Shown piece by piece: positions 16,119 to 51,451 of a stretch of 64,000 nt of DNA (the first letter of the stretch is position 1; the number at the start of each line of letters is the position of its first letter). Origin of the DNA: Escherichia coli (lineage in GTDB: Bacteria; Pseudomonadota; Gammaproteobacteria; Enterobacterales; Enterobacteriaceae); assembly GCF_048403405.1 (NCBI RefSeq), contig NZ_CP183129.1. One strand, 5' to 3'. The position numbers and the translations under genes were made by a program. The notes under the pieces are model-generated. The model was not told the DNA's origin. It did not search any database and was given only the letters and a program-made list of their open reading frames with translations.

Positions 16119-17654
16119 TTAATTACTCCCTTGCCTGATAATTGCAACTCCATTCCCTTTAGCTTTGGGATTATATTTTAGATAGGTGTTATTTGGTGTT
16201 CCCAAGTAACTACTGTATTCTTTTTTTCCCATTCCATTCATATAAGAATTCGTTAAATCTTTGCTTGAAAAATTTAGACTATCATAAACATCATTTTCTT
16301 TTGTTACTTTATTTCCTTTATCGTCAGAGTAAAAACCGTGAGTGTGATAATCACCTACTCTCTCTGAACCTTCAGGGCATTTTATATTTCGCAAGTCTAC
16401 ACTATCATTATCATTTGAACTTATCGGATTCATAGGGAAATATTCACCTTGCTTCTTACATATTAGTCCACCATATTCTTTATTCTTGTTAATTGATTCT
16501 CCATTACACATTGCCAATGCAAATATTCCAATATCATCTATATTTTTTGATTTAAATTCATATAATCCTAATGGATCCATGCCATTCACCGGGCTCAGCG
16601 GATATGTATACAGGTTCCATCCCCCCTTCAGCCCAATCGGATCCTGAGTGATATACCGCCCCTGCAGCGGGTCATAATAGCGGTGGCGGTTGTAATACAG
16701 GCCGGACTCCTCATCATACTGCTGACCCGGCAGGCGGATGAGCTGCTGCAGCTGATGCGGGTTCTCTTCATTCAGCTGGTTACCCCATTCATCGTATTCT
16801 GCGCACCATTCTGTTGCCCCTTCCGTGCTGACAAGCGCCAGCGGCAGGCCGCGATGGTCGCAGTGGTACAGGTGGATTTTTCGCGCCGGCGTGTACACCG
16901 GGTCCATCTGGTTTTGTATCTGCTCCACCGTCAGGCCGCACGATGCCAGCCAGCGGCGGCTTTCCTCGCTCACCCGGTCAGCCAGGATTTCACTTTCCAG
17001 CCGGTCGAGCATCTGCACCAGCACCGGCGGGAACACCACACTGCCACCGTCTTCACCGCCGGACTGCTGAAGCGCATCCGCCAGGCTGCGGCGCTGCGTT
17101 TTCGCCAGCTCACCGGTGGCAGTTTCAACTCTGATGAGTGGCGTGAAGCTCCCCGGCTGATAAACCGTCTGGATGCGGGTTCTGTCGTTCTGTATTGTGG
17201 TCAGCCGGTCGCCGTCCCAGCCGTACCAGGTCACTTCCGGTTTCCATGACAGCGACATCCAGCCCGTCAGGTCCCGTTCACGCCGCCATACCCGTTTTGC
17301 CACCCTGCGGCCCAGCAGGTCGTAAAGATAGCGACTTTCGACCAGCGGCTCTGCATATTGTGTCCGCGTGTAGTGCACCAGCCGGTGCCGGCTGTCGTAA
17401 TGGTACCGGTGAGTCCGCTCATCATCCGTGCGGATAACCCCTTCCGGGATGAGGTCGGTTTTCTCCGTCAGCCTGCCGTGACGGTCATACCGGTAAAGAT
17501 AGTGCGCGTCACGGGCGATACGGTTATCCGGCCATGCGCTGAGGGGGCTGTCCGGGTGCAGCTCCGGGTCGGGCAGGCGGTTGCCTGCCGGGTCCGTGGC
17601 ATACGGGATATCAATGCCCAGGTTACATATAATAATAAGAGCAATTAACTTAAT
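16119..17654 (-). CDS. orphan Rhs C-terminal module: 5'-truncated rhs core ending in the DPLGL motif plus a distinct ~150 aa toxin tip; no start codon of its own
   Basis: Frame is open from 17654 but first ATG/GTG/TTG is at 17378; residues ...[22 protein letters not shown]...[39 protein letters not shown] are near-identical to the main rhs; tip contains YHTHG. Confidence 0.7.
16606..17608 (-). repeat. ~1.0 kb direct repeat (orphan copy) of the rhs core 3' region
   Basis: Near-identical to 20946..21938 (only scattered mismatches on visual alignment). Confidence 0.8.
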
Positions 17655-17981
17655 TTATTTGTTTATAATGCGCTTACTTAATACAAACCATTGAATATAC
17701 CCTCCTGACAGAAAATAAAGCCATATTATTATCGCCATAATATACTTACTATCAATCCTTACGCCAATAATGTCTGAAACAGTCCCTATAAATATTAGAG
17801 CAATAAAGAATACTATGCCTGTTGGAAAACAGATTACCATCATTCCATAAGACATGAGACTAATTAACTCGCTCACATCACGAGTGGAGTCTAATAGTGA
17901 AAGTCTATGCATGGAAAAGAATAGTATTAAAAGCGATAAAGCCAGCCATATAGCTCTGAATAAAAAAATAATATATTTCAT
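17655..17981 (-). CDS. small polytopic membrane protein (108 aa), candidate stranded immunity protein
   Basis: MKYIIFLFRAIWLALSLLILFF...; about three hydrophobic helices; AT-rich; stop codon directly abuts the orphan rhs frame. Confidence 0.4.
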   Translation of the reverse strand: MKYIIFLFRAIWLALSLLILFFSMHRLSLLDSTRDVSELISLMSYGMMVICFPTGIVFFIALIFIGTVSDIIGVRIDSKYIMAIIIWLYFLSGGYIQWFVLSKRIINK

Positions 17982-18059
17982 TACATCACTCCGGTGAATA
18001 CAAATCTAATAAAGCGTCCAATGTTATTTCCGGAGCACTTCATCTTACATGTTTCTAAA

Positions 18060-19260
18060 GAATCATTAGACCAGTCAGGGCAAGATTACGAAAGCCCGCT
18101 CCCCGCAAGGACTGACGCGAGATAGTTTCTGTCCATGGCTGCTTTTCGCATCTTACGTCTTAACCCTGCCTTGAATACCTTATCATTCGTCAAAATATTA
18201 ATAGCAATGTGCCGTATCCCTGAAAATAATTCTGCTGCGTTTCCTCTTCTTATTTTGCAGTCGTCTTCATTCATTACCACGTCCAGACGCCAGTGCAGCT
18301 TATTCTCCACGTGCCAGTGGTTTCGGATTGCTGTGGCGAACTTCTCAGCGGTTAAATCAGCAGAGCTGATATAATATCTGACCGTCATTTCTGGCTCTTT
18401 CTTTTGTTCTGCTATTATTGACCGAAAGGAGACTGCCACGTATAATTTTTCAGTCCTTTCCATTCAAATGTAAAATCAATAAGTTCATCAGGGACATCGC
18501 AAACAATATGAAGACGGATTTCTTCTCTGCCGTGACTCTTTTCACTAATTGCGTAACTGTCATGCTCTGGATTAATTAATTCTTTCAGCGGAAATGTTTC
18601 CTCAAAGGCTTTATTCAGCCGCCCCTGGTTTCCTTTTACAGCGAATAAGTAATCACCACCCTGTTTTTGTATCTTCTCTGCAATATCTTTCTGGCAACCC
18701 ATCGCATCAGTTGTGATGATTTTCTCTTTAATATACAAAATGTTAAGAAGTTCAGGGATAGCTGTGATCTCATTAGATTTCTCATCCGTCCTGATCTGCC
18801 CCAGGACCAGAATGTGCATTGTTGAGAACGCACTAATGACATGAATCGCTCCCCTGCGGCGACTCTTGTCATAAGAATGCCGGAGTGTTTTTCCATCAAT
18901 TGCGATGACGTCTTTATCATCTGAAGTATGGCAATCTCGCATCCAGTTAATAAAGCACTCGTGAAATTTTGCAGGACTGATACAGGATACAACTCTGGCG
19001 ATGGTATCGTGAACAGGAATACCATTTTCAAAATCACCGTATTGTTTTAAAAAATCGAGATGTGTTTCCCCAAAATCCTCTATATCTTCCCAACCTTCTG
19101 CACCCGAAATAACGGCACAAATAGTCAACAGTAGAATATCCGATAATTTATGTTCCACTTTCCAGGCTTGTCTGTAATCGGGGATAATAGAAATATGCTC
19201 CATCAATTTTTTAAGTTCCATTTTGTTCTCCTTAATTATGTAAGGAGTATTTGATCATGT
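18060..19260 (-). mobile_element. H-repeat / ISAs1-family element (approximate boundaries)
   Basis: Contains the H-rpt transposase; termini not defined by eye. Confidence 0.5.
18086..19221 (-). pseudogene. H-repeat-associated (ISAs1-family) transposase, split by a frameshift near 18415-18463
   Basis: 268 aa N-terminal piece ([28 protein letters not shown]...) and 125 aa C-terminal piece (…[21 protein letters not shown]…) in different frames. Confidence 0.75.
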
Positions 19261-19324
19261 ATAAGCAATAAAAAACAGCTTTAGGTAATGAGGAATATCT
19301 CAATTTTCAAACATAAAATGCGAA

Positions 19325-19920
19325 TTATTTAGTACAAAAAAGCAGCGTTACGTGATCTTTCCCTGGCATGTCATTAGATGAACCAGTTATACAACCCTCG
19401 GAACAGAATCGAGGTCCTAAAGACGGACCAAAAGCGTTTAAACAACTATGTATTGAAAATCCATTACGATTATAAGTTCCTGTATTAACTGACGGTACTA
19501 ATCGTATGCCGTCAGGTTTTCTATTGCTTGCTCCCGGGTCATTAACATTCCAACTCCATAGGCCTTGAGGTATTGGCCCTCTATTTATAAATGTGTACAA
19601 CGGGGATTATTTTTACATTGCATATTATTACCAGAAGCGACTGGAATACTAAGCACATCATAAAAATTATCATCACCTGGTATATCTGAAACACACGAAA
19701 GCATACCTAAAGTTATGCTGTATAAACAGGTGGCTAATCCCAAGGGGATCGATTCCAGAAATCGGGTTCAACGGATACTGATAAAAATTCCACCTACCTT
19801 CCAGCCCAATCGGAGCCTGAGTGTTATACCGCCCCTGCTGCGGTTAATGTTACCGATAATAGTTATAGTACAGCCCTGATTCATCATCATACTACTGCTG
19901 CGGCAGTCTGATGAATTATT
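19325..19920 (-). pseudogene. degenerate orphan rhs-CT remnant (rhs core 3'-end fragment with stops and intact DPLG codons, then a decayed tip)
   Basis: 19770..19920 is roughly 75% identical to the rhs core end by eye; translation gives [51 protein letters not shown] then a stop; 91-aa ORF 19325..19600 follows. Confidence 0.55.
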
Positions 19921-20403: not shown

Positions 20404-23400
20404 CTATCTTATATCACTGGGTTTTTCTGGCGTACCTTGCATATTAGAAATGGGGTGCCCAGATGGCCCATATGTTATCCAATTACCAAGGTCTTTTGTT
20501 GTTATAGCCATTAGATCCTTATTTGAATTAAGGTTCGTTGGTGCTGTTAGCACTGTATCCATTTTTAACTTACCATTAGTTCCTCGCCCCCACCACGTCC
20601 ATAGCGTGTCAGGTCCTATTACATTTGTATGTAACTCTTTAGCTAATTGGCTAGCAAATGAATTTTGTCCTTTACCTGTATTACAAGAAAATAACCAAAC
20701 TGTCATCCCATCTTTATAATTCCCATCAAATTTAATTAGATATGCTAGATCTTTAGCTGTCATGATACTGCGCGTTGCGGATTCAATAGATGTGGGGGTA
20801 CCATGCCCCCCGATTGTGAAAACGCCTGGGATATTAATCTCATCAGCTACAGAATGGATAAGATCACTTTCGGGGTATAAATTTATATCAACCAAACCTT
20901 GCGGATCTACATTTATGACCGGATCCAACGGATACTGATAAAAATTCCATCCCCCCTTAAGCCCAATCGGATCCTGAGTGATATACCGCCCCTGCAGCGG
21001 GTCATAATAGCGGTGGCGGTTGTAATAGAGGCCGGACTCCTCATCATACTGCTGACCCGGCAGGCGGATGAGCTGCTGCAGCTGGTGCGGGTTCTCTTCA
21101 TTCAGCAGGTTGCCCCATTCATCGTATTCTGCGCACCATTCTGTTGCCCCTTCCGTGCTGACAAGCGCCAGCGGCAGGCCGCGATGGTCGCAGTGGTACA
21201 GGTGGATTTTTCGCGCCGGCGTGTACACCGGGTCCATCTGGTTTTGTATCTGCTCCACCGTCAGGCCGCACGATGCCAGCCAGCGGCGGCTTTCCTCGCT
21301 CACCCGGTCAGTAAGGATTTCACTTTCCAGCCGGTCGAGCATCTGCACCAGCACCGGCGGGAACACCACACTGCCACCGTCTTCGCCGCCGGACTGCTGA
21401 AGGGCATCCGCCAGGCTGCGGCGCTGCGTTTTCGCCAGCTCACCGGTGGCGGTTTCAACTCTGATGAGTGGCGTGAAGCTCCCCGGCTGATAAACCGTCT
21501 GGATGCGGGTTCTGTCGTTCTGTATTGTGGTCAGCCGGTCGCCGTCCCAGCCGTACCAGGTCACTTCCGGTTTCCGTGACAGCGACATCCAGCCCGTCAG
21601 GTCCCGTTCACGCCGCCATACCCGTTTTGCCACCCTGCGGCCCAGCGGGTCGTAAAGATAGCGACTTTCGACCAGCGGCTCTGCATATTGTGTCCGCGTG
21701 TAGTGCACCAGCCGGTGCCGGCTGTCGTAATGATACCGGTGAGTCCGCTCATCATCCGTGCGGATAACCCCTTCCGGGATGAGGTCGGTTTTCTCTGTCA
21801 GCCTGCCGTGACGGTCATACCGGTAAAGATAGTGCGCGTCACGGGCGATACGGTTATCCGGCCACATGCTGAGGGTGCTGTCCGGGTGCAGCTCCGGGTC
21901 GGGCAGGCGGTTACCTGCCGGGTCCGTGGCATACGGGATGCGGATATCCAGATTCGCTGCGGTGGTGTGGACGCCGGTCAGCCTGCCGGTGTCGCTGTAG
22001 CTGTAACTCCGGGTCTGGCGCGGGCTGCTGATGCGGATGAGTTCGCCGTTGTCGTTCCAGGTGTAATCGCGGTCATACTGCAGGCTGTTCAGGTGCTGGC
22101 TCTGTAACTGCCCGGCAGAGGTGTAAGCGGTGGTGAGTTCATAACGGCCGAAGCTGCGCAGCGTTTCCCGGTGCAGGCGGTCGCGGGTGAAATCCACCAG
22201 CGGTGTGTCGCCGAGTTTCATGCCTGACAGCCAGCCGCTGCCGTAGGTCAGCCATTCCACGGCGGGCAGGCTGTCCGGTATACAGCGGTTCGCCAGTCCC
22301 TGCGCGTTGTACGCATGTCTGGTTTCATGCTGCCAGAGCAGTGCTTCCGTCTGCGGGTGATGCACCGTCTGGCGCTCACCGGTCAGGCGGCCTTTCTCAT
22401 CATACCCGTAATGCACCGTCACCCGGTGGCCTTCGCTGAGATGGCTGATGCCTGTCAGCCAGCCGCGTTCGTCGTACCGCCACTGTTCTGCGGTTTCACC
22501 ATTCACCGTTCGCTGTGTGATGCGGTCTGCTTCGTCATAGTGCCAGTGGGTGACCAGCCCCTCATCCTCGCTGCGGATAAGTTTGCCGGTCAGGTCGTGG
22601 TGATAACGCTGTGTGCGGCCGTCAAAGCCGGTTTCCTGTATCAGCCGGTCAAGTACATCGTAACGGAAGGTGGTGTGGCTGCCGTTTTCACTGGTCAGGC
22701 GGATGACCCGCCCGGCAGCATCGTATTCCATACTGCGCGTCAGACCGCCCTGCGTGGTACGGATGGCCTTTCCCCACGCATCGTACTGTGTCCCGTTTCT
22801 GCTGTCGTCCGGGGCAATGACGGCGGTCAGGTCACCGGCGGCGTTGTATTCATACCGCGTTTCATGGCCCTGCATGTCTTTCACCGCAATTAACTGTCCA
22901 CGGCTGTCGTATGCGCGGTACTGGCTCAGGCCTTCCTCGCGGTGCACCGTCGTCACCTGACCAAAACGGTCATGGTCATAGCGGGTTACATAACCGGAAC
23001 AGTCGGTAAAGCTCAGCAACTGACCGTAACGGCTCCACGTCATGGTTTTCCGGCTGCCGGTGGCATCTTCCGTTGCGCAGGGGAAGTCACTGTGTGGATT
23101 ATCATAACGGTAGCGGGTGATATCGCCGTCAGGGGCGGTTTCCTGAATCAGACGGCCGGATTCATCATATTTGCGGCGCAACTCCAGCCCGTCAGTCCCG
23201 GTGGCTGACGTTAACTGGTTGTGGTGGTTATAGTAAAATGCCGATGCCCTGCCATCCGGTGTGGTGATGCGCGTGATGAGTCCCGTCACCACATCCGGGC
23301 TGTACTCAGTCGTCCGGCCTGCGGCATCCGTCTGTGCCTTAAGCCTGCCCACCGCATCAAACTGACTCTGCGCGACGCTGCCGTCCGCGTGTTCCTTTTT

Positions 23401-24633
23401 CACCACCCGCTTCAGCCCGCCTTCGCCCTGCGTGTGCAGCACTTCACGGCGGTCCAGACTGTCGGTGATGGTGATGCGGTCTTTCTCATACTGATACGTG
23501 TAGCTTAAGCCTGCCGGGTTTAGCTGCTCTGTCACCCGCCCGTCGCTGTCGTAACGGTAACGGATTTCCGGCCGGCCCGCGCGGCGGTGCGCCACCATCC
23601 GGCCCCGGTATTTATCATCGTAAGTAAAGCTGCGCACCTGTTTGCCACTGCGGTCATACACCGCCGCCAGTTCGCCGCGTGGCGTCCAGCCATAGCGCAC
23701 CAGCGGCGCGGCAGGTAAATTCTCCGGGTATTCAGGGTCGTGTGTCAGCCACACGGCAGACAGACGGATACCGTTGTCCCGGCCATATTCCGTGTAGTCC
23801 GGCAGGGTATCAGGAAAAGCGGACGGTTCCGTCCCGCCGGAAGTGGCCTTCTGCCGGGCCTCTTCTGCCCGCTGCGCCTGCGTGGTCAGTACCAGCCGGA
23901 AGTGACGCCCGGCACCATCCGTCACGCCGGTGATTTCGCCGCTGAATTCACCGCCAGCCTCACGGTGAAACGTCTGTGTGCGCCCGAAGCGGTCCACCAG
24001 CCCGGTCAGTACCCGGTACGGCGGCAGCGGCGCGGGCAGCACCTCATCCGCCTCCGGCACCTGCTCACACCAGCCGAGTACCCACCACGGCCCCTGCGGA
24101 CTGTTTGTCGCCAGATAACGATGCGGACTCAGGCGGAGTTCTTCCGGCAGCGCCTGCCAGAGTGCGGCCAGCCGGTGACCTTCATCCAGTTTCAGGACAC
24201 CGCCACGCACCAGCCAGAGTGATTCGCTGCGGCTGTAACCGTCCTCACCGGGAAACAGGTGCTCAAAATACAGGCTCCTGCCGCCGTTATCACTGAGTAT
24301 CAGTGTGTTATCGCGCAGCTGTAGGCGGATATCCGCAGGCATTTTCCAGCCGGGGCCGAGGCTCCCCACCGGCGCGGGCGTTTTTGTCCGGTAACTGCTG
24401 TAGGTGCGGGAGAGGATGAACGGCAGCGGGCCGGGCAGGGCAAGGTCGGTTTCGCCGGGAAGGACCTTCGCACCGAGCAGCGGATTGACCGGATGGCCGG
24501 ACGTCACCCCGCCGGGGCACACCGAACAGGCCACGCCGGTGGGGGCACCAATACGTACCCCGGCAGAACCCTGAACAATGCTACCGCCATACTGCGTCAT
24601 GTCGCCCTGACGCGCCGCCGGTTTTCCGCTCAT
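20404..24633 (-). CDS. rhs: Rhs-family polymorphic toxin (PAAR-like N-terminus, YD repeats, core ending PxxxxDPxGL, variable C-terminal toxin tip)
   Basis: 1409 aa; N-terminus [31 protein letters not shown]; many YD-type repeats; ...[14 protein letters not shown] followed by a ~162 aa AT-rich tip. Confidence 0.9.
20946..21938 (-). repeat. ~1.0 kb direct repeat (main rhs copy) shared with the orphan rhs-CT
   Basis: Near-identical to 16606..17608. Confidence 0.8.
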
Positions 24634-50649: not shown

Positions 50650-51360
50650 TCACAAATAAATATCCTCCGGCATAGCCGGAGGTTTTTCAAATGCGCCTAT
50701 AAGGCTCTCTTACCAGCCGCGCCCTAACAGGCGCACACGATCTGACATTTGCATCCAACTTCGTTACTTACGGCCCGTAAACGGGCTGCCCGGATAGGGA
50801 ATCGATAACTGCTCTCCCATTTTATCCTCTTCAAGCTGGTGCTTTATGTAATCCTGTATCTTCGCCGTGTTCTTACCCACCGTATCGACGTAGTACCCTC
50901 TGCACCAGAACTCCCTGTTCCTGTATTTGAATTTCAAATCACCAAACTGCTCGTAAAGCATCAGACTGCTTTTCCCTTTCAGATATCCCATAAAGCCGGA
51001 TACGCTCATTTTGGGCGGGATCTCCACAAGCATATGGATATGATCTGCACAGCATTCAGCTTCCAGAATCCGTACACTTTTCCACTCACACAGCTTTCTC
51101 AAAATACTGCCTATTGCTCTACGCTTCTCTCTGTAGAACACCTGTCTTCGGTATTTTGGCGCAAAAACTATGTGATATTTACAGTTCCATCGGGTGTGCG
51201 CTAAGCTCTTTTCGTTCCCCATTGGGACCCCCTTTTGATTTCTTGTTTGACACTTGCAGTTGCCAGACCGCAAGGTGTTTTAACAAATCAAAAGGGGTTT
51301 TAATAACTGGCTTAAAGCTGAAAGCTTTCCGGAACCCCCAGCCTAGCTGGGGGTTTTCTG
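50650..51360 (-). mobile_element. IS200-like element (IS200/IS605 family), approximate boundaries
   Basis: Contains IS200-type TnpA; characteristic perfect hairpins cctccggc-ata-gccggagg (50665..50683) and cccccagc-cta-gctggggg (51334..51353) near the ends. Confidence 0.75.
50764..51225 (-). CDS. tnpA: IS200 transposase TnpA (HuH Y1 family)
   Basis: MGNEKSLAHTRWNCKYHIVFAPKYRRQVFYREKRRAIGSILRKLCEWKSVRILEAECCADHIHMLVEIPPK... ; HxH motif; ~153 aa. Confidence 0.9.
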   Translation of the reverse strand, partial: PMGNEKSLAHTRWNCKYHIVFAPKYRRQVFYREKRRAIGSILRKLCEWKSVRILEAECCADHIHMLVEIPPKMSVSGFMGYLKGKSSLMLYEQFGDLKFKYRNREFWCRGYYVDTVGKNTAKIQDYIKHQLEEDKMGEQLSIPYPGSPFTGRK

Positions 51361-51451
51361 TGCACAACAAAAAAACCACCGCCGTTGGCGATGGTTCATT
51401 TTTTAAGCTGATATGCGGCGTAAACGCCTCATTGCAGCAGGCGGCAAATGA

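Follow-up and report, generated by a model that had tools for sequence, protein, structure and literature searches.

The window analysed here, a stretch of 64,000 nucleotides from Escherichia coli (contig NZ_CP183129.1), was collinear with the chromosome of E. coli strain TUM14771 (NZ_CP128875.1) at 99.9–100% identity, save for one insertion of 706 nt. The gene order in the collinear region was fsa/gldA/katG, metF-metL-metB-metJ-yiiX, an Rhs island, rpmE-priA-cytR-ftsN-hslVU, and the rha and frv operons, with the Rhs island situated between rpmE and yiiX/metJ. The 706-nt insertion (50661..51366) was located between sodA and kdgT and was absent from TUM14771, in which the alignment blocks overlapped by 9 bp. 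It bears an ORF at 50764..51273 on the minus strand, the product of which contains …HTRWNCKYHIVFAPKYRR…HIHMLVEIPPK… and presumably resembles a Y1 transposase of the IS200/IS605 type.

Read along the minus strand, the island is composed of an rhs core gene, a sel1-repeat gene, an RHS fragment, an H-rpt element, the remnant of an rhsC-type tip together with ybfB, an orphan RHS tip, dsORF-f3, and a copy of IS1H. The H-rpt element is accordingly part of an Rhs locus, in which it follows the rhs core gene and lies among remnants of tip and immunity genes. The IS1H copy bounds the island on the yiiX side, approximately 2.3 kb from the H-rpt element, and carries the PGAP label "frameshifted", which we take to reflect, most likely, the normal programmed -1 frameshift of IS1 and not damage. 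The features of the island are the following:

20404..24633, minus strand: rhs core gene, 1409 aa
19925..20392, minus strand: sel1-repeat gene
19366..19600, minus strand: truncated Rhs C-terminal tip ORF of the upstream flank, reading into the end of the insertion sequence (ORF 19325..19600)
18076..19365, minus strand: H-rpt/ISEc1 (ISAs1-family) insertion sequence, 1290 bp against 1291 bp in the ydcC copy
19351..19365, minus strand: inverted terminal repeat on the side of the transposase start, CAGGGAAAGATCACG as read on the coding strand; end of the homology to the ydcC copy
18415..19221, minus strand: N-terminal transposase piece, 268 aa, a listed ORF
18446..18450, minus strand: frameshift site at codon 258, A5 on the coding strand (T5 on the plus strand); sole gap of the alignment
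18086..18463, minus strand: C-terminal transposase piece, 125 aa, in the -1 frame, a listed ORF
18076..18090, plus strand: inverted terminal repeat on the side of the transposase stop, CAGGGCAAGATTACG as read on the plus strand; homology to the ydcC copy begins at 18076
17981..18075, minus strand: remnant of an rhsC-type C-terminal toxin tip (last ~31 codons), cut by the insertion sequence and running into the start of ybfB
17655..17981, minus strand: ybfB, intact
16119..17378, minus strand: orphan RHS core end and C-terminal tip in which DUF4329 was recognised (E = 2.3e-15); dsORF-f3 comes next

The preliminary description of this DNA had proposed an H-repeat (ISAs1-family) transposase of the kind found in Rhs elements, divided into pieces of 268 and 125 aa in different frames. 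The coordinates of the two ORFs proved exact: the pieces overlap at 18415..18463 (49 nt) and jointly span 18086..19221, i.e., 1136 nt or 3n + 2. The family assignment was borne out by the profile matches, by the alignment to yhhI, and by the position in an Rhs locus. The NCBIfam profile NF033564 (ISAs1 transposase; profile length 314, cutoff 70 bits) was matched above its cutoff by both pieces, the 268-aa piece covering profile positions 1–233 (E = 3e-87, 292.8 bits) and the 125-aa piece positions 241–314 (E = 1.4e-29, 103.3 bits). Among the Pfam families, the larger piece contains DDE_Tnp_1_assoc (PF13808) and positions 3–116 of DDE_Tnp_1 (PF01609), while positions 139–200 of the latter were found in the smaller piece, and the D, D, E architecture of this family is thereby present with its catalytic domain split over two frames. 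On alignment with relatives at 64–97% identity, D109 and D172 were invariant and E306, within the motif HVENK, was kept in 17 of the 19 aligned sequences; the first two residues are carried by the 268-aa piece and the third by the 125-aa piece, the break falling between D172 and E306. A single ISAs1-family (H-rpt/ISEc1) transposase is thus divided over the two ORFs, its N-terminal part in the 268-aa piece and its C-terminal part in the 125-aa piece.

The ends of the element were set by comparison with the solitary ISEc1 copy at ydcC, whose flanks are unrelated to those found here. Elements of the ISAs1 family are approximately 1.2–1.5 kb long and have short terminal inverted repeats, according to their ISfinder description, and the present copy conforms with its 1290 bp and with ends that coincide with those of the ydcC copy. 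Its terminal inverted repeats agree at 13 of the 15 positions, as read from the sequences; a seeded repeat search returned no terminal inverted repeats, the longest exact complementary stretch being 5 nt and the seed 6 nt. Homology to K-12 yhhI extended over 18075..19367. Apart from one base, which is discussed below, the insertion sequence is, to judge from its length and termini, structurally complete. No target-site duplication was found directly at its ends, and the ydcC copy is likewise devoid of a flanking duplication. An 8-bp string, TCATTAGA on the plus strand and TCTAATGA on the coding strand, does occur at 18062..18069 and 19371..19378, 5 bp beyond each end, and its position away from the ends means that it is not a normal target duplication; it could be the trace of micro-homology used in a rearrangement. 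In each of the two truncated Rhs tip ORFs these 8 bp are read in frame, as S-N-D; the rough chance expectation is ~1e-3. A scan of the region for promoters and terminators yielded sites no more numerous than in shuffled sequence. The best sigma-70-like match, TTGACC-17-TATAAT (11/12), is situated at 18418..18446 on the plus strand, antisense within the transposase gene and beside the frameshift run, while the hexamers at the corresponding place of K-12 yhhI are weaker; since the number of sites did not exceed that of shuffled sequence, this match is probably due to chance.

The two flanks of the element differ in origin. From 18075 down to 17600, the sequence was 99.4% identical to the 3' end of K-12 rhsC and to ybfB, the similarity starting exactly at the end of the insertion sequence; the rhsC-tip remnant is annotated by PGAP as "hypothetical protein, missing N-terminus". 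ybfB looks here like an orphan gene of the immunity type, its toxin having been removed at the H-rpt junction. On the other side, the truncated tip ORF was not homologous, at the junction, to the rhsC tip of K-12, and its sole family match was a weak, sub-threshold one to Tlde1 (E = 0.002, 18.9 bits against a cutoff of 30.1). The upstream and downstream flanks are therefore tips unrelated to each other. H-repeats act as junctions within reshuffled Rhs loci, and the chimeric arrangement of the flanks fits this role.

When compared to other members of the family, the copy in the window most resembled two intact elements. The K-12 H-rptB/yhhI (ISEc1, ISAs1 family), which is linked to RhsB, was 95.5% identical at the nucleotide level over ~1293 bp, has the same ends, and is also located downstream of an rhs gene and its tip and immunity genes. 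In contrast, yhhI is an intact ORF of 378 aa, whereas the loss of one base at codon 258 has left the copy in the window in two pieces of 268 and 125 aa. The solo ISEc1 at ydcC was 96.4% identical over its full 1291 bp and has the same termini, CAGGG...CCCTG; it differs in encoding an intact transposase ("ISAs1-like element ISEc1 family transposase") and in its position between yddH and ansP, without any link to an Rhs element. The H-repeats of the K-12 RhsC locus, ybfQ, ybfL, and ybfD, adjoin an rhsC-type tip and ybfB, as does the present copy, and are annotated as inactive, pseudogene, or truncated. However, they belong to another locus (kdp-phr as opposed to rpmE-metJ) and have suffered heavier and different lesions, while the copy in the window has a single 1-nt deletion. 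Their inactivity indicates that decayed H-rpt transposases in Rhs loci have long been known and are common. H-rpt-homologous sequence was found in 5348 of the 5426 complete E. coli genomes, at a median of six places per genome. According to the E. coli W genome paper (PMC3032704), H-rpt has an entry in ISfinder, but transposition of the element has yet to be observed. Functional elements are known elsewhere in the ISAs1 family: a Paracoccus paper (PMC3281130) names ISPmar4 among the functional elements that its own laboratory had identified earlier in Paracoccus.

The lesion itself could be located precisely. The preliminary description had pointed to the overlap of the two ORFs and to an alignment with intact H-rpt transposases of about 378 aa. 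Such relatives do have this length, and the alignment to K-12 yhhI (1236/1294 identities) was interrupted only once, by a gap of 1 nt that falls within the overlap, at 18446..18450. The ydcC copy gave a 1-nt gap at the same place, the only one in 1291 positions. At this site CTGAA-AAATTA in the window corresponds to CTGAAGAAATTA in intact copies, one base being absent; more specifically, the two intact E. coli reference copies (K-12 yhhI and ydcC) read CTGAAGAAATTATGC against CTGAA-AAATTATAC in the window. With one base inserted, a clean ORF of 378 aa was obtained, with no other stop and 96.8% identical to YhhI; it differed from yhhI by 12 non-synonymous codons (12 amino acids) and 31 synonymous ones. 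Five substitutions, S137I, G166E, K209T, N216I, and C261Y, were peculiar to the copy in the window at sites that are otherwise conserved in the E. coli copies. Since the ORF is undamaged save for one base, either it was inactivated recently or some constraint acts on the pieces. Both intact copies have AAGAAA at the site and no homopolymer, from which it follows that the change was either the loss of the G or a G-to-A substitution followed by the loss of an A. The repetitive context invoked in the preliminary description is therefore not needed to explain the lesion.

The allele was widespread in public genomes. An exact 81-mer around the lesion occurred in 146 complete E. coli chromosome records, and a 571-nt fragment comprising ybfB, the end of the insertion sequence, and the lesion was found at ≥99% also in 146 records. 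The agreement of the two counts, as distinct from a comparison of the two lists, suggests that every genome with this insertion bears the deletion. These carriers, 146 of the 5426 complete genomes, were 99.9–100% identical over the element, and their records list different strains, hosts, and sources. TUM14771 and MS 69-1 are among the carrier strains, and the strain names hint at a clade that may be related to ST38 within phylogroup D. The exact 268-aa product was present in 467 public contigs from several archives and the exact 125-aa product in 130, while the exact repaired protein of 378 aa was absent among ~15 billion public proteins. The same 1136-nt span bears the PGAP label "ISAs1 family transposase, frameshifted" in an independent genome, TUM14771, which does not differ from the window over 17990..19330; over 25.3 kb the two align without gaps and with 24 mismatches. 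The mutation is a genuine, inherited one and is fixed in the E. coli lineage carrying this insertion.

Taken together, these data identify the element as a copy of ISEc1/H-rpt within an Rhs locus whose transposase gene has become a pseudogene through the real, inherited loss of one nucleotide at codon 258, a reading to which we assign a probability of about 0.93. The preliminary description had left the choice between a pseudogene and a sequencing error, and it is the former that stood, with one base missing relative to the intact copies and with the PGAP label of a frameshifted gene. Translation from the normal start, which is preceded by an AAGGAG Shine–Dalgarno sequence 6 nt upstream of the ATG, would stop after 268 aa, i.e., native residues 1–258, ten out-of-frame residues, and the stop. 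The last 120 native codons, which include that of E306, would be left in the -1 frame without a ribosome-binding site of their own: the 125-aa ORF consists of five non-native residues (MERTE) and native residues 259–378, and no Shine–Dalgarno sequence could be read before its ATG. This C-terminal piece is therefore probably not translated. Because the break separates D109 and D172 from E306, no polypeptide with the full DDE triad would be produced, and the copy, a transposase pseudogene, is predicted to be unable to make an active DDE transposase. No single continuous ORF of ~378 aa exists in this copy, and the splitting of the ORF by the 1-nt deletion makes it a defective, non-autonomous member of the ISAs1 family. 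At most, intact copies at other sites of the genome might mobilise it in trans, which is conceivable because the terminal inverted repeats are intact.

A role for the truncated product would be compatible with the classification as a transposase pseudogene, but we consider it improbable. The 268-aa protein might be expressed and might regulate or inhibit, in trans, the intact ISEc1/H-rpt copies of its genome, and the frameshift allele might have been kept in the lineage for this function; a DNA-binding protein devoid of catalytic activity would be one form, by analogy with InsA of IS1, OrfA of IS911, or the Tn5 inhibitor. The piece does retain the start codon and the strong Shine–Dalgarno sequence, the complete DNA-binding domain DDE_Tnp_1_assoc, and D109 and D172 of the catalytic triad. 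Approximately five further H-rpt-homologous places occur in genomes with the allele, which has become fixed in its lineage without a second disabling mutation. However, with carriers so nearly identical over the element, the missing further decay has no statistical weight, and the five substitutions at conserved positions mentioned above suit drift equally well.

Still harder to sustain is programmed recoding, in which the ribosome would shift to the -1 frame or transcription would slip, so that a full-length fusion transposase arose beside a short regulator, as in IS1 and IS3. In the IS1 and IS3 families two ORFs overlap, the second being shifted to -1, and the copy in the window resembles them in that its downstream frame is -1 with respect to the upstream one and in its 49-nt overlap around the A-rich G AAA AAT, a layout like that of the IS1/IS3 frameshift windows. 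Nevertheless, no classic slippery X_XXY_YYZ sequence (e.g., A_AAA_AAG/C) is present among the 17 heptamers that lie in phase within the overlap, G_AAA_AAT and C_CTT_TC being merely "relaxed" matches, and runs of five A are well under the lengths at which slippage of RNA polymerase becomes appreciable. The two-ORF layout is also not conserved: relatives with identities as low as 64% have one continuous ORF of 376–378 aa, those from Escherichia, Salmonella, Citrobacter, Serratia, Dickeya, and Raoultella one of 377–378 aa. Given that the family is single-ORF and that AAGAAA stands at this site in the two intact E. coli copies, the split is the derived state of one allele, a mutation and not a family trait, although some low-level restoration of the frame by ribosomal or transcriptional slippage is conceivable.

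Equally remote is a sequencing or assembly error, in which the gene would be intact and a base would have been dropped from a short homopolymer, as the run of five identical bases at the lesion and a single discordant genome might suggest, since an identical allele in 146 chromosome records of varied strains, hosts, and sources, the 268-aa product on 467 contigs, and the missing repaired protein all speak against it. A run of five bases is not a difficult homopolymer for sequencing platforms, and no further H-rpt copy that might have caused mis-assembly was found by self-BLAST within the window, which has one copy only. A repaired AAGAAA 82-mer with the haplotype of the window occurred in no complete genome, and the repaired A6 82-mer in one only, SCU-109 (NZ_CP051733.1), which shares the local haplotype and is the discordant genome referred to. 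Compared to the window, SCU-109 showed 34 gap positions in 14 kb, mostly in short single-base runs; its transposase is annotated in four pieces, and the neighbouring RHS fragment and ybfB are also fragmented (L003 4392..9000). Because this assembly is full of homopolymer indels, we read its six A as assembly noise and not as a revertant, and this public "complete" genome should be used with caution as evidence for allele states.

The inherited one-base loss in the transposase gene is thus an ordinary finding, and the pseudogene is already annotated in public genomes. Its recognition tidies the annotation of the locus, which contains one transposase pseudogene in an otherwise complete ISEc1/H-rpt element and neither two genes nor an assembly error. 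It adds one more decayed H-repeat to those of Rhs loci, as in K-12 rhsC with ybfQ, ybfL, and ybfD, and the allele could serve to mark the E. coli clade with this rpmE-metJ Rhs arrangement.
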